Assembly (NCBI GenBank): GCA_018396535.1
Contig: JAGTQC010000004.1
Span: 11,418-75,417 of the forward strand
Direction: 5' to 3'
Source: Candidatus Bathyarchaeota archaeon
GTDB taxonomy: Archaea; Thermoproteota; CALKCG01; B24; DRYS01
DNA: 64,000 bases
The notes under the pieces: generated by a model
What the model was told of the DNA's origin: nothing
The model's input: the letters and a program-made list of their open reading frames with translations, nothing else
The model's database searches: none
Program-made: the position numbers and the translations under genes
Part shown: positions 8,548 through 52,870 of the stretch, piece after piece
Layout of the letters: each line of letters begins with the position of its first letter
Position numbering within the stretch: the first letter of the stretch is position 1

Positions 8548-9558
8548 ATGCGTAGAGGTGTAGGTGTAGTATTCAAGGATAAAGGAGTAGTATCCCTAGA
8601 AGAATTCGATATCGATAGCTTAGAACCCGGCCGCCTCCTTGTTAAAACACTCTATACGCTTATAAGCCCAGGTACGGAGACAGCATTCCTACTAGGCTTA
8701 CCCAACACCCCGGCTACCTACCCTCAGTATCCAGGCTATAGTAACGTAGGTATAGTAGAGGATATCGCTAGCGATATAAGGGGGTTCAGTATCGGGGATA
8801 TAGTTGCATCACCATCAAGGCATGCTAGTATAGTAGCACCTAGAGCTGAGAATACTTTTAAAATACCGGGGAGCATAGATCCTATAGAAGCCTCCTTCTT
8901 CTATCTATCAGCTATAGCTCTCCAAGGTGTACGTAAATCCGAGCCTGAGATAGGTGAATCAGCTGTAGTCCTAGGCCTAGGTCTTGTAGGACAGCTTACA
9001 GCACAGCTCCTAGCTCTATGCGGGGTCATACCGGTTATAGGTGTAGATCTATACGATTATAGGATAGAAGTAGCTAGATCCCTATCCATAGACTATGGTT
9101 TAAACCCATCGAAGATCGATACCGTATCAGAGGTATACAGGATAACTGATGGTAGGGGGGCATCGATAGTTATAGAATCTACAGGTAATCCTGAAGCTAT
9201 AAACCTAGCTTTAAAGCTAGCAGGTAGAAGAGGGCGGGTCATACTCCTAGGTAGTACTAGAGGCTTATCCACCGTCAACTTCTATAGCGATGTACATAGG
9301 AAGGGGTTGATAATAATAGGAGCTCATAACTCTATAAGACCTAGATCCGAATCATCTAGATGGTACTGGACGATTAGAGATGATGTAGAGCTAGTCTTTA
9401 AACTCCTATCTATGAAGCGTCTAAGAGTTAGGGAGCTTATATCATCTATACTAGAGTATAGGCAAGCTGAGGAAGCCTACAAGCTACTGATAGATCATAA
9501 AGATAGGGTTATATCCGTAGTTTTAGATTGGAGGGTTATATCAGATAGCCTTAGATAG
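8548..9558 (+). CDS. Medium-chain (MDR) dehydrogenase lacking the canonical zinc ligands
   Basis: LISPGTE and PGYSNVG replace the C/GHE zinc motifs. NAD-binding GLGLVG and IESTGNP are present. Confidence 0.85.
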   Translation: MRRGVGVVFKDKGVVSLEEFDIDSLEPGRLLVKTLYTLISPGTETAFLLGLPNTPATYPQYPGYSNVGIVEDIASDIRGFSIGDIVASPSRHASIVAPRAENTFKIPGSIDPIEASFFYLSAIALQGVRKSEPEIGESAVVLGLGLVGQLTAQLLALCGVIPVIGVDLYDYRIEVARSLSIDYGLNPSKIDTVSEVYRITDGRGASIVIESTGNPEAINLALKLAGRRGRVILLGSTRGLSTVNFYSDVHRKGLIIIGAHNSIRPRSESSRWYWTIRDDVELVFKLLSMKRLRVRELISSILEYRQAEEAYKLLIDHKDRVISVVLDWRVISDSLR

Positions 9559-10059
9559 AGCGTTCACAGCCTCCCTAACCCTACGATAGGTCTGCTGCAA
9601 AGCTTCAGATACAACCTTAACATCAGATATAACAGGCATGAAGTTTGTATCCCCCTCCCATCTAGGAACTATATGCACATGTATATGCTTATCAACCCCA
9701 GCTCCAGCAGCCCTACCTATATTCAAACCTATGTTAAACCCGTGGGGTTTATACGCATATCTCAACCATAGTATACACGATCTAACGGTGGAGATCAGCT
9801 CGTAAAGCTCATCATCGGTAAGCTCTTCTAGATTAGCTTTATGACTATATGGTGCAACCATGAGATGCCCGTTATTATATGGATACCTATTAAGCATAAC
9901 GAAGCATAGCCTCCCACGATACACTATCAGATTCTCCTCATCCCTACCCTCACTAGGCTTAACGCAGAATATACATGCTTCACTAGAGGTATCGGTAGAC
10001 TCTACATAGTGTATACGCCACGGAGCCCATAGGATCCTCCTCATAGCATAACACGTCAA
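9541..10059 (-). CDS. HIT family nucleotide hydrolase / Ap4A phosphorylase-like protein
   Basis: LWAPWR, CIFC, NRYPYNNGHLMVAP and HIHVHIVPRW. Confidence 0.92.
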   Translation of the reverse strand: MTCYAMRRILWAPWRIHYVESTDTSSEACIFCVKPSEGRDEENLIVYRGRLCFVMLNRYPYNNGHLMVAPYSHKANLEELTDDELYELISTVRSCILWLRYAYKPHGFNIGLNIGRAAGAGVDKHIHVHIVPRWEGDTNFMPVISDVKVVSEALQQTYRRVREAVNALSKAI

Positions 10060-10130
10060 ATATATATCCTAATCACTATATAAGAAAATGTTTATCTCCC
10101 AGGATACGTTTATCTTCAGATAAGAGCGGC

Positions 10131-11750
10131 TTGGATAGGGGTATTCTCTCCATCCTAATAGTCATCACCCTACTACTAGCATTCTCTATAGCATCCATAA
10201 CCCCGAAGGTAGAGTATACACCTACCATGGTTTACAAGTATAGATTCAACATAGACTACGATGGGAATACCTGTACGCTTATAAGATTCGAATCACAGGA
10301 GCCGGGTATAAGCTGGGTTATACTACCATCATACACGAACTGGACTATCTCCGTATCAAACGGTACTATAATCGAAGGCGTATTCAAACCCCTACCCGAT
10401 GGAAATCCATTCTGGGGTAACTACACCTTCAGATTCGAATCAAACGGTAGGATCTTCTCTATGCTTATAGCCTACGCTATCCCCCTATACACGTTTATAA
10501 TAGAGCCTAACGGATTCTTCCTCTCACCTCTCATAGGCTTCGATCGTAGAGCTAGGGGTTCAGCTACAATCTACATGGATGGTAGAATCAGTATCGGTAC
10601 AGCATTCTATCTAAGCGAATCTCTAAACGTTATGAGAACGGTTAACCCTAGGAGGGTATCGGCCGAGGATGATAAGACTATGATAGAGTTCGATGCTATC
10701 TCAGTATCACGTATAGGATTCACATTCTCTAGGAAAGGTTCACCTGATACGGTATCGCTGGTAGATCCACCATTCCGTATGGATATACCATCCAGGTACA
10801 TAGATATAGGTAGGCATATAATGGAGCTGTACAGAGACGCGTATAGGATACTATCAAACATGCTCTGTATAGAATTCGATAGCATAGTCGAGGTTAAGCT
10901 ATTCGTACCTACACTACAACAATTCCAGGAGGGTGTAGCTGGATTCGTACCCATATCCCCAGGGGATCTTCAATCCATAAACTTGAATCTATTCAATCTA
11001 AGATATACAAGCGGAACTATGGAGCTTGTAGCCCTCCACGAGCTCGTCCACCACTTCATAAAATCCATAGGTATATCGATAGATAAGCTGTGGATCCATG
11101 AAGGTCTAGCAGAGTATATATCGATAAAGCTAGCTTCTATGCTAGGCTACGAGGATGCAGCATACGCTAGATATAACCAGCATATGCAAACGCTACAGAG
11201 TATACGCTCACGATCGCTAAACTTTATACAAGGTTGGAGCTTCGTAAATAAGCCAGCTGATATCAGACTCCTATACGCTGCATCATTCTACATATTCCAT
11301 TACATAGGTGAGAAGTACGGTGGTCTAGAATTCTATGGTAGGGTATTCGATATAATTAGAGCTATGGATGGCGTGAAGGAGGATTCGATCCTAGCTACAT
11401 CGATAGGCGTAGTTCTAGGCGATATATCCATAGGGTTATCCGAGTTTAGAAGATTCGGTTTAACCGTAGTTGATACGATTAGCCTATCAGCTACCCTATC
11501 CTATCTAAGGGAAGCTACTAAATCTATACCCGAACTACTAATATCTAAATCCATACTAGAAGCGTTACTACGACAGGTGGAGGAGCTATATGCGAGAGGG
11601 TTGTACACATCGGCTGAATCCCTACTAGGATTATATCAGCAGCTAGTTAAGCTACCATATACACTCACCGTATCAATCTATGCTATACTAGCTATACTAG
11701 CCTTGGTAGGTTTATCGCTAAAAAAGAGGGTGGAGGAATACTATTCGTAG
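10131..11750 (+). CDS. Membrane-anchored secreted gluzincin (clan MA) metallopeptidase-like protein
   Basis: N-terminal signal/TM segment, HELVH..WIHEGLAEY zinc motif, a downstream LLY tyrosine and a C-terminal TM followed by KKR. Confidence 0.75.
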   Translation: MDRGILSILIVITLLLAFSIASITPKVEYTPTMVYKYRFNIDYDGNTCTLIRFESQEPGISWVILPSYTNWTISVSNGTIIEGVFKPLPDGNPFWGNYTFRFESNGRIFSMLIAYAIPLYTFIIEPNGFFLSPLIGFDRRARGSATIYMDGRISIGTAFYLSESLNVMRTVNPRRVSAEDDKTMIEFDAISVSRIGFTFSRKGSPDTVSLVDPPFRMDIPSRYIDIGRHIMELYRDAYRILSNMLCIEFDSIVEVKLFVPTLQQFQEGVAGFVPISPGDLQSINLNLFNLRYTSGTMELVALHELVHHFIKSIGISIDKLWIHEGLAEYISIKLASMLGYEDAAYARYNQHMQTLQSIRSRSLNFIQGWSFVNKPADIRLLYAASFYIFHYIGEKYGGLEFYGRVFDIIRAMDGVKEDSILATSIGVVLGDISIGLSEFRRFGLTVVDTISLSATLSYLREATKSIPELLISKSILEALLRQVEELYARGLYTSAESLLGLYQQLVKLPYTLTVSIYAILAILALVGLSLKKRVEEYYS

Positions 11751-43313: not shown

Positions 43314-45653
43314 GTGAAAGATATGGGTGAAGCTAGCGTCATACCATCAAAGACTTCTATGATAGCTACACTCCTACTAATACTAGCATCTAGCTTACCA
43401 CAGTTATCAGCTCAAACAGTAAATTACACCTTCGTATACGGCTATGTACTAGACGAGAATGGATCAGGCTTATCTAGTGTTAGAATCCTAGTATCAGCTC
43501 AGGATGGATCGGTAAAAACCCTATCATATACAAATAGTGATGGATACTTTGGGCTACTATTAGAGAGGGGTTATACGTATACGTTAACCTTCTCTAAGCC
43601 CGGCTACGTTACCGTTACTAGGAGTATAAATGCTCAGAAGTTCGATATGAATATAGGTAATATTACTTTACGGGAGGCTATAAGGGTTACATCCATGACA
43701 GCGACCATAGCTTCTACAGCGGGATCAGATATATCGATACCAGTTACTATATCTAATGAAGGTGAGGTAGCAGAGCTTTTAACACTTAGCGTAGAGAAGC
43801 CTGAGGAGTGGGGTGTTAGGATAGTCTATCAGAATAGGGAGGTTTTGAGTATAGTTTTATCTAAGGGGCAGAGTATATCGATGGATGTTATACTCTCCAT
43901 ACCTAAGGATGCTCTTGAAGGCTTGTACAAACTAACAATTATAGTTAATGGAACGCTTATGCTTCGTAAAGTGTTCTATATCTATGTCCAGCCTCAACCT
44001 ACAGTAAGGATATATGGCTCCGTATTAGATGATGATGGATCCGCTTTAGGTAATGTTAAGATAGATGTATACTCTCAGGATGGTATTCTTATAGGATGTT
44101 TCGAATCTCTTACCGATGGATCCTTCTATTTAGTATTACCTTCCGTATCTAAGAGTATGTCGTTAACCTTCTCCAAGCCTGGCTACGTTAAACTATCTAA
44201 GGTGGTATCCATATCTAGTGGTGAACTCGATCTCGGTGCGTTAACTCTTCGTAAAGCTATAAAGCTTCGATCACAGATGGTGTCGCTATCTACTGATCCA
44301 GGTAGGAAGATACAGTTACCATTAACTATAAGCAACCTGGCTGATGAAGCGAAGATGGTGGAGTTATCAGTGGATAAACCTGCATCATGGCTTACACGTA
44401 TATTGCTGCAAAACCAGGAGGTTTCTAAGATTCTACTACAACCTAACGAAGCAGTTAATCTACAATTAGAGATTTTTATACCTATAGATTCTCGTGGACA
44501 GTATACTTTAACCTTGAAAGCTTCATCTGATATAGTATCAGCAATAGAGTTTATGGTATACGTTAATCCTCTAACATCTACGATACTGTACTGTCCTATA
44601 CCTGGTAGAACGGCTATACCAGGTGATACCGTTAGATTTCAAGTTAAAGTTAGGAATCCTGTGGAACTAGATCAAAGATTTAAGGTATCCGTAGAGCCTA
44701 CGATTATTGGATGGGTTGTATCCGTTAAAACTCTAGATGGTACCCCTGTATCTGAGGTAACCCTACCGAGTGCTGGATCGTTAGATCTCATAGTAGATAT
44801 CTCTATACCATCTACAGTTAGCGATGGTGTATATAAGCTAACTCTTAAAGCAGATTCGGGTATCCTATCGGATGAGATAGATTTAAGGATAGATGTAAAG
44901 AGGGCGCCTCCATACATTAAGCTTGTAGCTGCACCGCCATACATAGACGTATACTCTGGATCCGATGCACGTTTTAAGATATTAGTCCAGAATATGGGTG
45001 GCTATGATGAGCTACTAGATCTGTTTGTCGAAGGTATACCAGGAGGTTGGAGATATAGATTCGAAGATTCAGGTAGACAAGAGATAACCAAGCTTTATGT
45101 AGAAGCAGGTAGATCCAAGGAATTCTATTTAGTAGTATCAGTTCCATCAGCTTCGTCTCTAGGAACTGTGGATCTAACGGTGTATGCTAAGAGTAGCGAT
45201 GTATCTGATAGGATCGATCTAAAACTAAACATCCTAGGCTTATATAAGCTATCGATAATTACTCAGAACTTCTATACATCACTAACTGTCGGAGGAGAGA
45301 CAACCTTCACCCTAACCGTTAAGAATACGGGTAGCCGGGATACTACTAATGTAAAACTCCTATACTCCAGTATTCCTAGCGGCTTCAATATAGATGTATC
45401 TCCTACGAGCTTAAGTGTATTAAGGGTAGGTGAGGAAGCCTCCTTCACTATACGTATCTCGACGACGCCCGATATTAACGCTGGAAACTACTACATAGAT
45501 TTCACATTATCTTCAGATCAGGTTCCCCCATCACAGTTTACGCTTAGGGTGGAGTTATTCCATGAAACTAGTTGGCTTCTCTACGGAGGTATAGCTATAG
45601 TTTTAGCGTTAACAAGCCTGTTCCTCATGTATAGGAGGATCGGTAGGAGGTGA
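43314..45653 (+). CDS. Surface protein with carboxypeptidase-regulatory-like and NEW3 (NPCBM-associated) Ig-like repeats, C-terminal anchor
   Basis: Signal peptide, duplicated G.VLD..G..L...FSKPGY modules, repeated V.N.G...P..W beta-sandwich modules and a C-terminal TM followed by RRIGRR. Confidence 0.8.
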   Translation: MKDMGEASVIPSKTSMIATLLLILASSLPQLSAQTVNYTFVYGYVLDENGSGLSSVRILVSAQDGSVKTLSYTNSDGYFGLLLERGYTYTLTFSKPGYVTVTRSINAQKFDMNIGNITLREAIRVTSMTATIASTAGSDISIPVTISNEGEVAELLTLSVEKPEEWGVRIVYQNREVLSIVLSKGQSISMDVILSIPKDALEGLYKLTIIVNGTLMLRKVFYIYVQPQPTVRIYGSVLDDDGSALGNVKIDVYSQDGILIGCFESLTDGSFYLVLPSVSKSMSLTFSKPGYVKLSKVVSISSGELDLGALTLRKAIKLRSQMVSLSTDPGRKIQLPLTISNLADEAKMVELSVDKPASWLTRILLQNQEVSKILLQPNEAVNLQLEIFIPIDSRGQYTLTLKASSDIVSAIEFMVYVNPLTSTILYCPIPGRTAIPGDTVRFQVKVRNPVELDQRFKVSVEPTIIGWVVSVKTLDGTPVSEVTLPSAGSLDLIVDISIPSTVSDGVYKLTLKADSGILSDEIDLRIDVKRAPPYIKLVAAPPYIDVYSGSDARFKILVQNMGGYDELLDLFVEGIPGGWRYRFEDSGRQEITKLYVEAGRSKEFYLVVSVPSASSLGTVDLTVYAKSSDVSDRIDLKLNILGLYKLSIITQNFYTSLTVGGETTFTLTVKNTGSRDTTNVKLLYSSIPSGFNIDVSPTSLSVLRVGEEASFTIRISTTPDINAGNYYIDFTLSSDQVPPSQFTLRVELFHETSWLLYGGIAIVLALTSLFLMYRRIGRR
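43582..44189 (+). repeat. Internal tandem duplication (period 579 nt / 193 aa) in the surface-protein gene
   Basis: CGTTAACCTTCTCTAAGCCCGGCTACGTT at 43582 versus CGTTAACCTTCTCCAAGCCTGGCTACGTT at 44161. The proteins align along the whole module. Confidence 0.85.
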
Positions 45654-46615
45654 CCTCTATACCTGAATATGTTATCGAAACATATGGATTAACTAAAGTT
45701 TATAGATCTGGCGGCGGCGCGGTCGTAGCTGTAGATAAGCTTGATTTCACCGTTGAGAAATCATCTATATTCGGTCTACTAGGACCTAATGGTGCAGGTA
45801 AAACTACGCTTTTGATGATGCTAACAGGCTTAACCCTCCCCACAAATGGTTCCGGTAGGGTTCTAGGATACGATATAGTTAGGGAATCTCGTGAGATACG
45901 TAGGAGGGTTGGTTTTCTACCTGAAGGTTTCGGTTTCTACGAGCATCTCACAGCTGAACAGAATCTAGAGTATATAGCTGCTTTGAACGATATACCTAAG
46001 CCTGAGAGGAGGAAACGTATCGAAGATATCCTATCTCTAGTAGGTTTATACGAGGTTAAAAATAGGAGGGTTTCAAGTTTCTCTAGAGGTATGAAGCAGA
46101 GGCTTGGTATAGCTCAAGCGTTAATTAAAGATCCAGAGCTACTCCTACTAGATGAGCCTACCGCTGGTTTAGATCCAGAGGGGTCTAGAGCATTTAAAGA
46201 TCTCGTATTGAAGCTGAATAGCGAGGGTAGGACTATAGTTCTAAGTACGCATCTACTATTCGAAGTTGGGCCCCTCTGTAGTTCTATCGCTATAATGAAC
46301 CGCGGTAGGATTGTCGTTCAGGGTAGGGTTAAAGATCTGATATCCAAGCTTATGAGCGAGGTAGGCTACAAGATATACGTAGAGGTTCGAGGTGATTTAG
46401 GGAAGCTTGCTTCAGCTCTAACCGGTATGGAGGGGGTGAGGGGTGTGAGGATAGGTGTAGATAGCCTCTATGTGGATTCTACGAGGGATATCAGGGTGGA
46501 TATAGTTAAGATCGCTTCAGATATGAAGGTTGAGATATCGAGTATAAGAGTTGAAGAACCGTCTCTGGAGGATCTATTCATAAGATATTATAGGGGTGAG
46601 GCTTCCAATGCCTAG
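45650..46615 (+). CDS. ABC transporter ATP-binding subunit
   Basis: GPNGAGKTT, FSRGMKQR, LLLDEPT and STH. Confidence 0.95.
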   Translation: MTSIPEYVIETYGLTKVYRSGGGAVVAVDKLDFTVEKSSIFGLLGPNGAGKTTLLMMLTGLTLPTNGSGRVLGYDIVRESREIRRRVGFLPEGFGFYEHLTAEQNLEYIAALNDIPKPERRKRIEDILSLVGLYEVKNRRVSSFSRGMKQRLGIAQALIKDPELLLLDEPTAGLDPEGSRAFKDLVLKLNSEGRTIVLSTHLLFEVGPLCSSIAIMNRGRIVVQGRVKDLISKLMSEVGYKIYVEVRGDLGKLASALTGMEGVRGVRIGVDSLYVDSTRDIRVDIVKIASDMKVEISSIRVEEPSLEDLFIRYYRGEASNA

Positions 46616-47558
46616 CGTGTATACTGTCGCATCTAGAGAATTCTCTGATATAATACATAGTAAACGCTTCATAATACTCGTAGCTGTATTCTCGATTGTA
46701 TTCATGGTCGGTATGGCTTCGATATACCTTACAGTCCTCTCCATGGCTCAGGGTCTCGGTATAGCTATGCCTACAGGGTTCCTAGGTAGAGCTGCATCGA
46801 TAATAGCATCATCCATGTCCTACTTCGCTCCGATAGTAGGTATAGCTTTAGGATGCGATGCTATATCCGGGGAAAGGGAGAAGGGTACTCTGAAGACGAT
46901 CCTAGCTCAACCCATATATAGAGATACATTTATAACTGGGAAATTCATAGCGGCAATCTTAGCTGTATCTATAGCAGTCTCCATAGCATCCCTGGTTAAT
47001 GTAGGAGGATCCATAGTAATCCTAGGTGTGACACCTACAAGCGAGGATATAGCTAGGCTAGCTCTATTCATAGTATTCTCGATACTATACGCTATAAGCT
47101 ACTATGGTATAGCTATACTATTATCCACTATAGCGAGGAGGACTACTCAGAGTGTGATAGTAAGCGTAACGCTATGGGCTATATTCACATTCGCTATACC
47201 TATAATCGCCTCTCTCGTAGCATACATGTATAGGCCAATAACTGGTATAGAAATAATACAGCGTCCAGGTGGGAATGTAACTATTAGAAGACCTAGCCCT
47301 GAGGAGATGCAGCGTATAATAGAGCAGACAAGGGCTAGAGCTACTATAACGGAAGCTATAAATAGTATAACGCCAAACTACCATTTCACGAAGATAATTC
47401 AGTACATTCTCGGCTTTATGCAGGGTGGGCTTAATCAATCGTTATCCATATATCAAGGTCTAGTATCAGCGTGGCCTAATATACTGGTACTAGTGTTGGT
47501 AGCCTGTATAACGTTGATAGCATCGTACATGGTGTTTATAAGGCAGGAGGCAAGGTAG
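46608..47558 (+). CDS. ABC-2 type (NosY-like) permease
   Basis: VASREF.D, G.DAISGEREKGTLKTILAQPI.R and six TM segments. Confidence 0.9.
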   Translation: MPSVYTVASREFSDIIHSKRFIILVAVFSIVFMVGMASIYLTVLSMAQGLGIAMPTGFLGRAASIIASSMSYFAPIVGIALGCDAISGEREKGTLKTILAQPIYRDTFITGKFIAAILAVSIAVSIASLVNVGGSIVILGVTPTSEDIARLALFIVFSILYAISYYGIAILLSTIARRTTQSVIVSVTLWAIFTFAIPIIASLVAYMYRPITGIEIIQRPGGNVTIRRPSPEEMQRIIEQTRARATITEAINSITPNYHFTKIIQYILGFMQGGLNQSLSIYQGLVSAWPNILVLVLVACITLIASYMVFIRQEAR

Positions 47559-49058: not shown

Positions 49059-49700
49059 ATGACGTTATCGCATTTATCTAGCTATTTAACGCATAGGACA
49101 TGCATCCTATGTGCATCTCTAGGTTTAGGATGCTGTAATCGATGTCAACCATTCATACTGTATGCTGATATTAAGCGTATGGTTGCCCATATAGATTCAA
49201 GGATTGTTAAAGAGTTGATCGAGTGTAGCATGATACCTGAAGCTTATCGTGATCATTTGGAGAATCCTGAGATGAGGATGGTATACTATCAATGGGGTGG
49301 GTCATGGTATAGGATTCAGATGAGGTTTTCGAATGGCTCATGTATAGCCCTTAAACATGGCCTTGGCTGTATGCTTAATAGATATAGGCCCCTGATATGC
49401 GTAGTATGGCCGTTTTGGTGGAGTGAAGACTCAAATCCGTTAGGTAATGATTTTGAGATAGAAGTTATCGGTGAATGTACCATGGCTATACGTTGGATGT
49501 TTACACCTGAGAGAATAATGTTCGAGCTTGATATGGATGAAGCAGAGTTGAAGAAGTATCTGAGGAGTATGTATATTGCGTTGAGGGAGCATGAGTCTAT
49601 ACTTAGGGAAGCCTATAGTAAAGGTGTGGAGCCATCTATGCTTCTAGAATGGCTTATAACTAAGGCTGTATCCAGCTATCCTATGGAGGAGTATCTTTGA
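49059..49700 (+). CDS. YkgJ / CxxCxxCC family cysteine-cluster (Fe-S or Zn) protein
   Basis: CILC.....GCC, then CIAL....GC.L and RPLIC..WPF. Confidence 0.8.
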   Translation: MTLSHLSSYLTHRTCILCASLGLGCCNRCQPFILYADIKRMVAHIDSRIVKELIECSMIPEAYRDHLENPEMRMVYYQWGGSWYRIQMRFSNGSCIALKHGLGCMLNRYRPLICVVWPFWWSEDSNPLGNDFEIEVIGECTMAIRWMFTPERIMFELDMDEAELKKYLRSMYIALREHESILREAYSKGVEPSMLLEWLITKAVSSYPMEEYL

Positions 49701-50698
49701 GTATGAAGGTCGCTATACTATATAATGCACCAGCTGGTAAGCCTGATAGTATCGAATATCTATCTGAAGCAGGGGTGCTAGAGGAAGTTGAAGCTGTTAG
49801 ACTAGCTCTAGAGAGGCTTGATTTAAAGTACGATATTATCCCACTTAGAGATGATATAATCGAGTTTGCTAGAGCTGTTAAAAACTGTAATCCTGATGTA
49901 GCTGTAAATCTATGTGAGGGAGCCTTCGGTTATAGTATGTATGAGATGAATGTAGCAGCACTCCTAGAGCTTCTAGGGGTTCCGTATACTGGGGCAGATC
50001 CTTTAACCTTGGCTTTAGCTAGGGATAAGGGGTTATCCAAGGATATATTTAGAGCTAAGGGTATACCTACACCAGAGTATAGGGTTTTGAACAGTATCTT
50101 GGATTGGGATTCTAAACTGAGTTTCCCACTTATAGTTAAACCTGTAGCTGAGGATGCTAGTATCGGTTTAACGCGTAGAAATTTTGTTAGATGCTTCGAT
50201 GAGCTTAAAGATATCGTCGAGTATATAGTCGTAAGGTATGGTCAGCCAGCGTTGGTTGAGGAGTATATCGCGGGTAGAGAGCTTAACGTAGCGTTCATAG
50301 GAGGTGAAGAACCTGTGATGCTACCTATCTCTGAGATCGTATTCGAGTTCGAAGAGGAGCCTAGGATAGTAGACTATTATGCTAAATGGGTTAAAGGTAG
50401 CTATGAGTATGAGAGGACTAGGCCTCTATGTCCAGCACCTCTTGATGAAGGGGTAAGGGTTAGAGTGGAGGATGCTGCTAGAAGGGCCTATAAAGCTTTA
50501 AAGTGTAGGGATTATGGTCGTGTAGATATAAGGCTTAGAGGTATGGTGCCATATGTTCTAGAAGTTAATCCAAACCCGGATATATCGCTAGATTCAGGTT
50601 TCGTTAGGAGTTTGAATGCTGCTGGTATACGTTATGAGGATTTCATAGCTAGGATAATATCCTATGCCTTAGATAGGTCTAGGAAGTTTAACAAGTGA
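49697..50698 (+). CDS. D-Ala-D-Ala ligase-like ATP-grasp enzyme (non-canonical), copy 1
   Basis: LELLGVPYTG, DKGLSK, PLIVKP..EDASIG, EEYIAGRE, Y.AKW, GRVDIR and EVNPNPD. Confidence 0.9.
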   Translation: MSMKVAILYNAPAGKPDSIEYLSEAGVLEEVEAVRLALERLDLKYDIIPLRDDIIEFARAVKNCNPDVAVNLCEGAFGYSMYEMNVAALLELLGVPYTGADPLTLALARDKGLSKDIFRAKGIPTPEYRVLNSILDWDSKLSFPLIVKPVAEDASIGLTRRNFVRCFDELKDIVEYIVVRYGQPALVEEYIAGRELNVAFIGGEEPVMLPISEIVFEFEEEPRIVDYYAKWVKGSYEYERTRPLCPAPLDEGVRVRVEDAARRAYKALKCRDYGRVDIRLRGMVPYVLEVNPNPDISLDSGFVRSLNAAGIRYEDFIARIISYALDRSRKFNK

Positions 50699-51727
50699 TC
50701 TATTATCTAGCTTATCCTCCATGCCATACCTTTCTAGAGCGTACCAGAGGATGGTGCATATTAGCTCGTCGTAGCTATATCCGGCTGCTCTAGCAGCTGT
50801 AGGTAGGGCTGAGTGTGCATCTGGATTCGGTATCAATCCTGGTAGAGGGTTGACTTCCATTATGCGTGGTTCACCGTATCTATCTAGCCTGACGTCTATA
50901 CGGCATAGATCTCTGCATCCTAGGACTCTAAACGTTTTGAGAGCTATATCTTTAAGCTTGGATTCTAAGCTTAACGGTATATCTGCCGGGCATCGTAGTA
51001 TATCTAGCGGATTGTTCGGTGTATCCCAAAGCCATTTAGCTTCGTAGGAGTATATGGGGCTAGCTTCCCTCGGTAATTTATCGAGTAGAATCTCTACTAT
51101 CGGTAGTACGACTGGACTCCTATTACCTAGGATTCCTATAGTGAATTCTCTACCAGGTAGGAATTCCTCGACTATAGCGGGTTGTTTATAAGTCGATATA
51201 ACCCATGAAACCTGTTTTCTAAGAGCCTCCGCATCCCTGACGAGAGATGTGCTTCTAATACCTTTGCTCGACCCCTCTCTTAGAGGTTTAACTATGAGTG
51301 GAAATTCCAGATAGTCTTCGAGCTTCTCTTCAACTGATTCAAACACCTGGAATTTAGGTGATGGCAGCCCATACGATGATAATACCTGGTGGGTTAGAGC
51401 TTTATCCAGACATATAGCTAGGGTAGCGGGGCCAGATCCGGTATATGGTATACCCAGCATCTCGAGTATGGAAGGTATATGCGATTCTCTACTCTCACCT
51501 CTTAGCCCCTCAGCTATATTGAACACTATATCTGGTTTCTCGCTTCTAAGCCGTAGGTAGGAATCCTCATCGGCTTCGATCTTCACGACACTACATCCAC
51601 TCTTCTCTAGAGCTTTAGCTATAGCTTCTACAGTTTCCTCTTCATCATATTCTACATAGTAGTCTTCTGGTAGATCTGATGCGGCAGGTCTTCTTAGATT
51701 ATACGTTATACATACCTTCAGCGGCAT
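50669..51727 (-). CDS. D-Ala-D-Ala ligase-like ATP-grasp enzyme (non-canonical), copy 2
   Basis: LEMLGIPYTGS, DKALT, PLIVKP..EGSSKG, EEFLPGREF, YSYEAKW, RIDVR and EVNPLPGL. Confidence 0.9.
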   Translation of the reverse strand: MPLKVCITYNLRRPAASDLPEDYYVEYDEEETVEAIAKALEKSGCSVVKIEADEDSYLRLRSEKPDIVFNIAEGLRGESRESHIPSILEMLGIPYTGSGPATLAICLDKALTHQVLSSYGLPSPKFQVFESVEEKLEDYLEFPLIVKPLREGSSKGIRSTSLVRDAEALRKQVSWVISTYKQPAIVEEFLPGREFTIGILGNRSPVVLPIVEILLDKLPREASPIYSYEAKWLWDTPNNPLDILRCPADIPLSLESKLKDIALKTFRVLGCRDLCRIDVRLDRYGEPRIMEVNPLPGLIPNPDAHSALPTAARAAGYSYDELICTILWYALERYGMEDKLDNRSLVKLPRPI

Positions 51728-51754
51728 AGCTCTTCTAATAGCCTCCCTTTAAGT

Positions 51755-52870
51755 CTAGGGAGGCGTAGCGTAGGCTATAGCCTCCTCCTCTATGGGAGGC
51801 TGCGGATACACGTATATATTGCCTTCATAGTTCCTGAGGATCACCTTATCCTTATCGAATGCTACTATATAGTTTGGTTGAATCGGTATTTTACCCCCGC
51901 CGCCCGGAGCATCTATAACGTATCTAGGTATAGCTAAACCAGATGTATAGCCTATAAGCGATTCGAGTATCTTTATACCCGTCTCTACTCTGGTTCTGAA
52001 GTGGGATGCCCCCTTAACTAGATCCATCTGGAATAGGTAGTATGGCCTAACACGTATCTTTAATAGTTTATGTAGGAGTTCCTTCATAACCTTGGGGTCG
52101 TCGTTGACCCCCTTCAATAGTACGGATTGATTACCTAGTGGTATACCCGCATCTGCTAGTAATCCGCATGCTCTTTCACTCTCCTCCGTTATCTCTCTAG
52201 GATGATTGAAGTGTACGTTAACATATAGTGGATGATATTTCTTCAATATACTGCATAGCTTAGGGGTTATCCTTTGCGGTAGTGTACAGGGCATTCTAGA
52301 TCCTATTCTTACAATCTCCACATGCTGTATAGCTCTAACCTTACCTAATATGCGATCTAGAGTCTCATCTGGAAGCATGAATGGATCTCCACCGGAGAGT
52401 AGTACATCTCTTATAGATGGGTTACCCTTGATATACTCTATCTGTTTAGCCCATTCATCCATAGACAACCTCGCAGGGGATCTTCCCACCATCCTCTTCC
52501 TAGTACAGAATCTACAGTATGTAGCGCATACGGTTGATACACACATAAGAACTCTATCAGGGTATCTATGAACTAAACCTGGTACGGGGCTATCTCCCTC
52601 TTCATCTAGCGGATCCTCAATTCCGTACGGGTCTTTAAGTTCTAGTGGGCTAGGTATACACTGCATCCATATGGGATCGCCAACCTCCTCTATGAGGTTG
52701 AAGTAGTATCTAGAAACTCTCATAGGATATACGGATACAACGGCTTTGAGAGGTTCTATATCGATCCTAAATTTCTCCGTTATCTGCTCTGGTTTAGTGA
52801 TAAGGTCTTTAAGAAGGGTTCTCCAATCCTCTTCTACCACTCCCCTCTCCAGCCCTCCCTCTAAAACCAA
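51755..52870 (-). CDS. kamA: KamA family radical SAM/PLP enzyme (lysine 2,3-aminomutase-like)
   Basis: DPL.E....PVPGLVHRYPDR, CATYCRFCTRKR, LSGGDP, HFNHPRE, NQSVLLKGVND and DAPGGGGKIP (PLP lysine). Confidence 0.93.
   Translation of the reverse strand: MVLEGGLERGVVEEDWRTLLKDLITKPEQITEKFRIDIEPLKAVVSVYPMRVSRYYFNLIEEVGDPIWMQCIPSPLELKDPYGIEDPLDEEGDSPVPGLVHRYPDRVLMCVSTVCATYCRFCTRKRMVGRSPARLSMDEWAKQIEYIKGNPSIRDVLLSGGDPFMLPDETLDRILGKVRAIQHVEIVRIGSRMPCTLPQRITPKLCSILKKYHPLYVNVHFNHPREITEESERACGLLADAGIPLGNQSVLLKGVNDDPKVMKELLHKLLKIRVRPYYLFQMDLVKGASHFRTRVETGIKILESLIGYTSGLAIPRYVIDAPGGGGKIPIQPNYIVAFDKDKVILRNYEGNIYVYPQPPIEEEAIAYATPP

Follow-up and report, generated by a model that had tools for sequence, protein, structure and literature searches.

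Our analysis of a stretch of 64,000 nucleotides from the genome of a Candidatus Bathyarchaeota archaeon (contig JAGTQC010000004.1, positions 11,418 to 75,417; the whole of this stretch is called the window below) shows that three of the four tightly packed genes at positions 49059 to 52870 belong to a unit that recurs in archaea and bacteria. This unit consists of genes for a KamA-family radical-SAM aminomutase (KamA), two ATP-grasp ligases that resemble D-alanine-D-alanine ligase (Ddl) and are called AG1 and AG2 here, and a small GNAT acetyltransferase; the remaining gene of the window region encodes a cysteine-rich protein. On balance we think it probable that the unit is a modular biosynthetic cassette which makes a cytoplasmic molecule of di- or tripeptide size that contains beta-lysine.

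Composition and distribution of the cassette

Ten of 60 related genomes encode KamA (E ≤ 1e-30), and AG2 orthologues (66–87% identity) are present in the same ten, with the two genes adjacent in all ten (10/10). Since KamA and AG2 occur together in the same 10 of 60 genomes and are neighbours in every one of them, their arrangement is far beyond chance. A wider scan, in which each species was represented by one genome, gave 598 matching stretches; 572 of these encode a relative, and the best 80 of the 572 loci were examined, as were 55 metagenome loci. The 80 loci comprise 21 from archaea (Bathyarchaeia, Nezhaarchaeales and other Thermoproteota) and 59 from bacteria (Ignavibacteria/Melioribacteraceae, Kryptonia, Bacteroidota, Desulfuromonadales, Planctomycetota, Acidobacteriota and one member of the Bacillota). 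Among the bacterial carriers are Stygiobacter electus (L118), a cultured organism by its record title, and Melioribacter roseus (L082), whose record is a metagenome-assembled genome.

Clustering of the encoded proteins finds KamA in 21, a second ligase in 17, a GNAT protein in 17 and the Cys-rich protein in 3 of the archaeal loci. In the bacterial loci the corresponding numbers are 53, 57, 46 and 0, in agreement with the remark, in a preliminary description of the window, that kamA genes with paired ddl-like genes are found in some anaerobic bacteria. The clustering undercounted the GNATs, as small open reading frames (ORFs) were masked by longer spurious ones, and a renewed search with members of the family finds a match in 71 of the 80 loci (16 archaeal and 55 bacterial; the archaeal number is 16 here and 17 by clustering because of length and self-hit filters). 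Among the six bacterial loci without KamA, five end no more than 1.7 kb from AG2, and the sixth (L106) has room for the gene and does not have it.

Archaeal loci have the genes in the order GNAT>KamA>AG2 <AG1, bacterial loci in the order AG2>AG1>GNAT>KamA. The flanking genes of the Ignavibacteria loci have housekeeping functions (RecG, GpsA, PlsY, IspD, QueA and NAD kinase); because the flanks of the bacterial loci are of this kind, the recurring unit is KamA, AG2, AG1 and the small GNAT acetyltransferase. The cassette GNAT is about 160–175 amino acids (aa) long, and its best sub-threshold NCBIfam match is RimI, not AblB. The neighbourhood survey that the preliminary description had proposed for the window genes thus finds them together in both archaeal and bacterial genomes, with GNAT rather than a YkgJ-type protein as the usual fourth member, and its proposal of a single functional unit made up of KamA and both Ddl-like ligases is supported by this linkage and by the gene fusions described next.

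Gene fusions and modularity

The genes of the cassette are found fused to one another in several combinations. A search with AG2 found 19,447 representatives at 50% identity (E ≤ 1e-3), and among the best 150 of these there are 46 tandem two-ligase proteins and three KamA-ligase fusions; one further protein is a ligase-GNAT fusion. When one of the KamA-ligase fusions was used for a search, 120 proteins among the matches listed include 99 with the order KamA-AG2, six AG2-KamA, two AG1-like-KamA and one GNAT-KamA. The source names of these proteins include Thermoplasmatota, Woesearchaeota, Nanoarchaeota, Methanocellales, Spirochaetales and Clostridia. Four metagenome loci (L146–L148 and L193) have a two-gene form, KamA-AG2 followed by AG1-GNAT, in which the AG1-GNAT protein is confirmed by Pfam in three.

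The cassette is modular, with a core of KamA and AG2 and an add-on of AG1 and GNAT. Three genomes of genus g6 (G011, which is 92% complete in 2 contigs, G013 and G015) have KamA and AG2 only, and in G014 the AG1 copy (C127:3412-4017) is broken by one TGA and three TAA codons beside intact KamA and AG2 genes; this pseudogene suggests that loss of the AG1/GNAT module is ongoing. In G007, AG1 is present beside GNAT at a second locus. The window genus (source genome G000, with G001 and G002) has KamA, AG2 and AG1, and no orthologous GNAT was found in it, the best matches being 29% identical over part of the length in G000 and 27% in G002. It appears that this genus has lost the GNAT gene, and the window region would be a reduced copy of a widespread cassette.

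There is also a variant cassette (L170:2881-5579, L152, L171 and L172) that has two ligases, a protein of about 442 aa, a pyridoxal phosphate (PLP) decarboxylase and KamA, and is without GNAT. The protein of about 442 aa is weakly like the MurL epimerase (25–37 bits, far below the cut-off), and the best matches of the decarboxylase, also far below cut-off, are LysA and the N-citrylornithine decarboxylase FslC; these predicted functions are hints of peptide-like small-molecule chemistry.

In genus g6 another gene lies divergently upstream of KamA (L031:8240-8986, L032:11384-12031 and L034:11053-11889). Judged by eye, its product resembles a protein of the corrinoid (B12-binding) methyltransferase type with a DxHxxGK motif. 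It was considered as a partner of the cassette and rejected, being specific to this genus and probably a case of unrelated synteny. Convergent beside AG2 in the same genus are genes for a DUF6785/DUF6784 protein of 668–673 aa and an alpha-L-fucosidase (L031:3824-5830, L032:6889-8910 and L034:6604-8616).

The two Ddl-like ligases

AG1 and AG2 are paralogues with 36% identity. Both match the Pfam domain Dala_Dala_lig_C (PF07478; E 1.7e-30 and 3e-37, respectively) and both miss all of the NCBIfam cut-offs for Ddl and Van ligases, with best scores of 156.1 (AG1) and 208.8 (AG2) vs 243 bits. Their frames are intact, and the orthologues of AG2 across the Bathyarchaeia are 65–86% identical. Comparison with E. 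coli DdlB (chains 1IOV and 2DLN) shows that AG2 retains K97, K144, S150, K215, R255, D257, E270, N272, G276 and S281 and has E, W and A in place of H63, Y216 and L282, respectively; AG1 retains most of the catalytic, Mg and ATP positions, with A at the position of S150 and D at that of G276. We take the E15-S150-Y216 triad and H63 of DdlB to be residues of the D-Ala site, and K215 and S281 to be those that bind the acceptor carboxylate. The N-terminal GGxSxE motif of Ddl is absent from AG2, where the family and joint alignments have an invariant acidic YN...E-[YWF]-D instead, and the invariant acidic residues of the AG2 family alignment are D22, E26, D28 and E73 (E73 being at the position of DdlB H63). 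Relative to the true Ddls, the cassette ligases lack an insert in the N-domain and have an enlarged omega-loop/K215 loop with two insertions. Since the catalytic residues are kept and the substrate-site motifs are changed, AG1 and AG2 appear to be working ligases whose substrate site has been reshaped.

The view that these ligases are not the D-Ala-D-Ala enzymes of peptidoglycan synthesis, which the preliminary description had put forward, is upheld by the missed cut-offs, by the presence of a separate Ddl in carriers of the cassette and by the ligase tree. All five of the bacterial carriers analyzed (5/5) have a separate Ddl that scores 325–362 bits against a cut-off of 245.65, and the cassette ligases of the same five score 131–174 bits. 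A pseudomurein-type or peptidoglycan role was considered for the cassette ligases and rejected, as the hosts and the separate Ddl in the carrier bacteria speak against it.

The ligase tree has 58 rows, four of them valid true Ddls, and was made by a quick method with SH-aLRT (Shimodaira-Hasegawa-like approximate likelihood ratio test) values as its sole support; one row, L134_Ddl, is a wrong ORF with a branch length of 9.65 and was discounted. The four true Ddls split off from all of the cassette ligases (SH-aLRT 100), so the comparison with Ddl, VanA and PylC that had been proposed for these enzymes gives a clear answer for Ddl; PylC, VanA and MurL are not in the tree. AG1 proteins form a clade with archaeal and bacterial members (SH-aLRT 97), AG2 and the fusion ligase domains form another (SH-aLRT 93), and the domains fused to KamA group on the AG2 side. 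In both clades the archaeal members are one group (100) beside the bacterial members; therefore the duplication that gave rise to AG1 and AG2 appears to be old, and the cassette has probably crossed between the domains as a unit. AG2 matches 40 PDB sequences (E ≤ 0.001), and none of these chains is named PylC. Co-folding of AG2 with AG1 gave a score of 0.88, but one control reached 0.73, and a high score could stem from likeness to the solved Ddl homodimers; the result counts neither for nor against the heterodimer that the preliminary description had considered.

Nine further related genomes contain only distant relatives of the ligases (33–43% identity). In five such genomes that were examined there is one fusion to an M20 peptidase and two to SAM (S-adenosylmethionine) methyltransferases, and the other two have no added domain. 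The three fused ones, from other Thermoproteota genomes, are at L038:7670-9886 (- strand), L041:1048-3051 (+) and L042:7405-9327 (+); the M20 peptidase fusion is 738 aa long, and the fusions with an N-terminal SAM methyltransferase are 640–667 aa. No KamA of the cassette type was found in the genomes with these fusions (L038, L041 and L042).

The aminomutase

The window KamA, which is the sole KamA copy of its genome, passes the KamA subfamily model TIGR00238 (300.4 bits vs a cut-off of 199.2) and also matches the Pfam families LAM_C and Radical_SAM. With the PF07478 matches of AG1 and AG2, this confirms the domain calls of the preliminary description, namely KamA and two non-canonical Ddl-like ligases. 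Among the equivalogs its highest score is with AblA (TIGR03820), 494.5 bits, just under the cut-off of 525.4; the glutamate and arginine aminomutase models give 438 and 344 bits, also below their cut-offs, and the EpmB model is the lowest of the KamA models (253 bits vs 369). With the AblA model, KamAs of bacterial cassettes reach 468 and 499.5 bits, likewise under 525.4.

The only solved relative matched by the window KamA is PDB 2A5H (E 4.5e-126). Like the window KamA, 75/75 cassette KamAs have the CxxxCxxC motif and the PLP lysine. The positions of 2A5H D293 and D330 are Asp in 74/75 and 75/75 of these proteins, which come from archaea, bacteria and fusion proteins, and the position of R134 is Arg in 75/75. 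We take D293 and D330 to bind the epsilon-amine of lysine and R134 its alpha-carboxylate; glutamate aminomutases have other residues in place of the Asp pair. Because these presumed lysine-binding residues are kept, the predicted product of the window KamA is likely beta-lysine. The clostridial lysine 2,3-aminomutase has a zinc site and a C-terminal multimerisation domain. The zinc-site Cys268 of 2A5H is Asp in the window KamA and Cys in 0/75 cassette KamAs, the alignment of the window KamA with 2A5H stops at chain residue 368 of 416, its C-terminus being short, and the tails of the cassette KamAs past the GGGxK motif have 0 or 1 Cys. The cassette KamA of the Candidatus Chrysopegis kryptomonas record (L066:9498-10624) is spread over two ORFs (9498-10256 and 10361-10624), the break being either a frameshift or an assembly error.

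The known fates of beta-lysine are few: acetylation to an osmolyte, modification of EF-P, fermentation and incorporation into some antibiotics. The preliminary description had stated that no known partner is adjacent here, and in a scan of the window genome (93% complete) neither AblB nor EpmA passes its cut-off; the best AblB (TIGR03827) match is 15.5 bits vs a cut-off of 205.1, and the best match to EpmA/GenX/PoxA (TIGR00462) is 84 bits vs 286.9. The three EpmA-model matches, in frames of 436–450 aa, are taken to be aminoacyl-tRNA synthetases. The beta-lysine 5,6-aminomutase family PF09043 has no match in the window genome, but it has none in the control genomes either, so this negative is uninformative. 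Lysine fermentation was considered as the fate of beta-lysine and rejected, as its pathway genes are not seen in the cassette. As for the osmolyte, a passage of one published paper describes beta-lysine as an osmoprotectant precursor (PMC9337991).

The cysteine-rich protein

The product of the fourth gene of the window region has no Pfam or NCBIfam match even at E ≤ 1, and a PF03692 profile search of the genome found two other genes and not this one. With PF03692, a homologue of 46% identity reaches 17.8 bits (cut-off 23). The YkgJ-like label given to the window protein in the preliminary description is thus weaker than the other calls; it is suggested by its feature neighbours in the ESM Atlas, which are leads rather than alignments and are YkgJ/CxxCxxCC clusters (0.95, 0.93 and 0.92), and by a predicted-structure TM of 0.65 with a cluster in which 96% of the members have PF03692, but not by the family models. 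Its conserved cysteines are 15, 18, 25, 26, 95, 104, 114 and 140, with an N-terminal CxxC...CCxxC pattern. A search of a database of 5.8 billion proteins found only 10 homologous clusters, and all of the source names given are Bathyarchaeia.

The Cys-rich gene is present in 4 of the 60 related genomes. In G000 and G001 it lies beside AG1; in G005 and G008 (82% and 80% complete), in which searches found neither KamA nor an orthologue of AG2, it is about 300 nucleotides (nt) downstream of a gene for a 277-aa protein. G002, which keeps the cassette, has an 18-codon C-terminal remnant of the gene just upstream of AG1 (L028:7952-8005; 72% identity, E 1.6e-4). In a Nezhaarchaeales locus (L054) the Cys-rich gene adjoins AG1, and a loose association with the cassette in archaea is possible. 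The gene is nevertheless a local accessory or neighbour and not a conserved member of the cassette; the earlier suggestion that its product takes part in the pathway is not supported, in view of its occurrence in 3 of the 21 archaeal and 0 of the 59 bacterial loci, of the remnant in G002, and of its presence in G005 and G008, in which no cassette was found.

The window locus and its genome setting

The source genome is 1.41 Mb in 14 contigs. The proteins closest to those of the window genes carry the source label Candidatus Bathyarchaeia, and the DNA sequencing runs that hold the window stretch are labelled as hot-springs metagenomes. Table 1 gives the four genes, whose layout and ORF ends are as first described.

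Table 1. Genes of the KamA-ligase region of the window (positions are those of the window)
Product	Position	Strand	Family
Cys-cluster protein, 213 aa, Cys-rich	49059-49700	+	divergent YkgJ/CxxCxxCC-like
AG1, Ddl-like ATP-grasp ligase, 333 aa (331 aa from ATG 49703)	49697-50698	+	PF07478
AG2, Ddl-like ATP-grasp ligase, 352 aa	50669-51727	-	PF07478
KamA-family radical-SAM/PLP aminomutase, 371 aa	51755-52870	-	TIGR00238

On the minus strand, 27 nt separate the stop codon of KamA from the start of AG2, and the convergent AG1 and AG2 genes share 30 bp at their 3' ends (50669-50698), an overlap that the ORF coordinates confirm. The other reported overlap, of 4 bp between the Cys-rich gene and AG1, holds if AG1 starts with the TTG at 49697, which it requires, and disappears if the start is the in-frame ATG at 49703 (MKVAILYN), which is 6 nt beyond the TTG and 3 nt past the upstream stop. 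The ATG is at least as plausible as the TTG, and the packing is tight with both. Contigs from one RNA library, 95–99% identical to the window, cover KamA, its junction with AG2, AG2 and AG1, which weakly hints that a close relative expresses these genes. In run X15 the YkgJ-like gene and most of the flanks have no RNA-library contig, and this uncovered part proves nothing.

Genes that flank the four encode a GT4 glycosyltransferase, an ABC-2 transporter, an archaeal phosphoenolpyruvate carboxylase and ribosomal protein S11, and have no evident tie to them. Positions 43314-47558 of the window hold a gene whose 779-aa product has CarboxypepD_reg and NPCBM-assoc/CARDB-type domains (S-layer/adhesin-like) and, immediately downstream of it, a pair of ABC-2 exporter genes (ATPase and permease); the three genes may be a surface-protein/export unit.

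A proposed pathway and its alternatives

In the pathway that we prefer, KamA would turn free L-lysine into beta-lysine, as its conserved residues suggest. AG2 would take beta-lysine directly, since KamA is its obligatory, strictly adjacent and frequently fused partner; like Ddl, it would most likely activate a carboxylate through an acyl phosphate and form an amide with a carboxylate-bearing amine acceptor, giving a beta-lysine dipeptide or amide. The acidic D22, E26, D28 and E73 of AG2 would fit a doubly cationic acyl donor, and its K215 and S281 positions would fit an acceptor with a nearby carboxylate. AG1 may then add a second amide bond, and in most lineages the GNAT would N-acetylate the free amine; in the window genus, where the GNAT is missing, this amine should therefore stay free. 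Our leading guess for the role of the product is a stress-protective or compatible solute, and a polycation or a store may also be named. We favour a metabolite over a modification of proteins because the distribution of the cassette is patchy and no target gene accompanies it. In a broader form the proposal is of an undescribed product class, beta-lysine di- or tripeptides or polyamine-like amides that are N-acetylated in most carriers and free in the window genus, and that are made by a four-activity unit common to Bathyarchaeia, Thermoplasmatota, DPANN and many anaerobic bacteria; we rate this broader form a little below an even chance.

Several points weigh against this pathway. Each of its steps, and each enzyme activity in it, is a prediction, and the roles of D293, D330 and R134 of the aminomutase and of the DdlB residues are presumed ones. 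The score of the window KamA just under the AblA cut-off leaves another basic substrate possible. The window genome is without the cassette GNAT and may therefore make another product than most carriers do. An osmolyte role is not indicated by any transporter, regulator or riboswitch, and the bacterial flanks are housekeeping genes; an Rfam scan of 10 bacterial loci at gathering threshold found one unrelated small RNA and no riboswitch upstream. Judging from record titles, many carriers come from groundwater or freshwater, which is a poor fit to an osmolyte. The RNA-library contigs could stem from contaminating DNA and do not demonstrate a transcript.

The same genes could instead make a polymer, with AG2 condensing beta-lysine with itself or with lysine to an oligo- or poly-beta-lysine, which would be a polycation similar to a polyamine, or to a cyanophycin-like polyamide, AG1 branching or extending the chain and GNAT capping it. 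The minimal KamA and AG2 pair of G011, G013 and G015, or a single fusion protein, would need no other dedicated substrate supply for this, and the invariant AG2 acidic residues suit a doubly cationic substrate here as well; KamA-ligase fusions occur in archaea with reduced genomes (Woesearchaeota and Nanoarchaeota, by source name), and the ATP-grasp enzymes RimK and cyanophycin synthetase polymerise. On the other hand the cassette has no conserved hydrolase or depolymerase, Ddl-type enzymes are single-turnover dipeptide ligases, and a defined small product is at least as good a match to the second ligase and GNAT of most loci, so we regard a polymer as rather unlikely. Quite unlikely, in our judgement, is a modification in which a Lys, Glu or C-terminal residue of a protein or ribosomal peptide would receive beta-lysine, then another residue and an acetyl cap, with a chemistry akin to that of EpmA/EpmB or RimK but carried out by ATP-grasp ligases. 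The housekeeping flanks in bacteria and the resemblance of the GNAT to RimI would suit such a modification, the ATP-grasp enzymes RimK, LysX and TTL modify proteins, and beta-lysine is used on EF-P; yet no target or carrier gene is conserved in the 80 + 55 loci, presence in 10 of 60 relatives suits an accessory trait and not a core function of translation, the ligases keep K215 and S281 (the presumed acceptor-carboxylate positions), and the decarboxylase and epimerase-like genes of the variant cassette are typical of small-molecule work.

KamA could also act on something other than free L-lysine, be it a different basic amino acid or lysine that AG2 has ligated beforehand; the order of the pathway, or its beta-amino acid, would in that case not be the one proposed above. 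The missed AblA cut-off, the glutamate aminomutase score just 56 bits lower, and the lack of the clostridial C-terminal region and zinc-site Cys speak for this, and a passage in Biology Direct (PMC2821294) argues that YjeK could be able to work on bound lysine owing to a short C-terminus. But both Asp residues, the R134-aligned Arg and the PLP lysine are kept in 74–75 of the 75 cassette KamAs. This is unlike the glutamate aminomutases, which replace the Asp pair, and such a substrate is to our minds very improbable. Finally, the best database matches of AG1 and AG2 are Ddl models and structures, as would be expected if they were ordinary or decaying D-Ala-D-Ala ligases beside unrelated neighbours. 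Linkage or fusion in hundreds of proteins from both domains, scores under all of the Ddl cut-offs, the separate true Ddl in 5/5 carriers, the split in the tree, and the intact frames with 65–86% AG2 identity across the Bathyarchaeia stand against this last idea and leave it practically no likelihood.

If a beta-lysine peptide or amide is indeed the product, it would be a widespread metabolite of anoxic habitats that has so far been overlooked, and the compact cassette points to a further, apparently uncharacterised fate of beta-lysine. There are over 100 clusters of KamA-ligase fusions, and the carriers include little-known archaea (Bathyarchaeia, Thermoplasmatota and Woesearchaeota) as well as common anaerobic bacteria. 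The KamA-AG2 fusions offer an experimental handle, since one polypeptide should yield the first product from lysine and its partner. The identity of the product would annotate thousands of genes now called 'ATP-grasp domain-containing protein' or 'KamA family radical SAM protein', and would reveal a recruitment of the Ddl scaffold outside cell-wall synthesis.

Comparison with known systems

No description of a cassette of KamA with paired Ddl-like ligases (with or without GNAT) was found in the literature searched, supplements not being covered; the work of Iyer et al. (2009) on amidoligases is one that may well describe such neighbourhoods. The closest parallel to the aminomutase part is AblA/AblB, the N-epsilon-acetyl-beta-lysine pathway of methanogens and some bacteria, in which a KamA-family aminomutase is paired with a GNAT, as in most cassette lineages, and AblA is the best-scoring equivalog. 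Unlike AblAB, which has no ligase, the cassette has two integral ATP-grasp ligases that are even fused to KamA; its GNAT of about 160–175 aa is nearest to RimI, and the window genus is without it. The EpmA/EpmB system of EF-P beta-lysylation is similar in that its KamA-family enzyme is short, lacks the C-terminal domain of the clostridial one and supplies beta-lysine to an ATP-dependent ligase, but EpmA is a class-II aminoacyl-tRNA synthetase paralogue that is below cut-off here, and the window host is an archaeon.

The cassette ligases share with Ddl and Van the PF07478 ATP-grasp fold family and keep the catalytic, Mg and ATP residues, and therefore amide ligation through an acyl phosphate is the chemistry expected of them. 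They differ in the missed cut-offs, the changed substrate-site residues and GGxSxE motif, their separate clade and the archaeal host. PylB/PylC of pyrrolysine biosynthesis also couples a radical-SAM lysine mutase, which makes an unusual amino acid, to a Ddl-like ATP-grasp ligase that joins a second amino acid to it; PylB, however, is not a KamA-family 2,3-aminomutase, and the cassette has neither PylD nor an amber-suppression context. In the Ngg/AsnO system (N-acetylglutaminylglutamine amide), fused GNAT and ATP-grasp domains make an N-acetylated dipeptide solute, and ligase-GNAT fusions are found in the cassette too. The ligase subfamily is a different one, though, and Ngg is not known to involve an aminomutase or a beta-amino acid. 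In its combination of genes, its ligase subfamilies and its fusions, the cassette thus matches none of AblA/AblB, PylB/PylC and Ngg.

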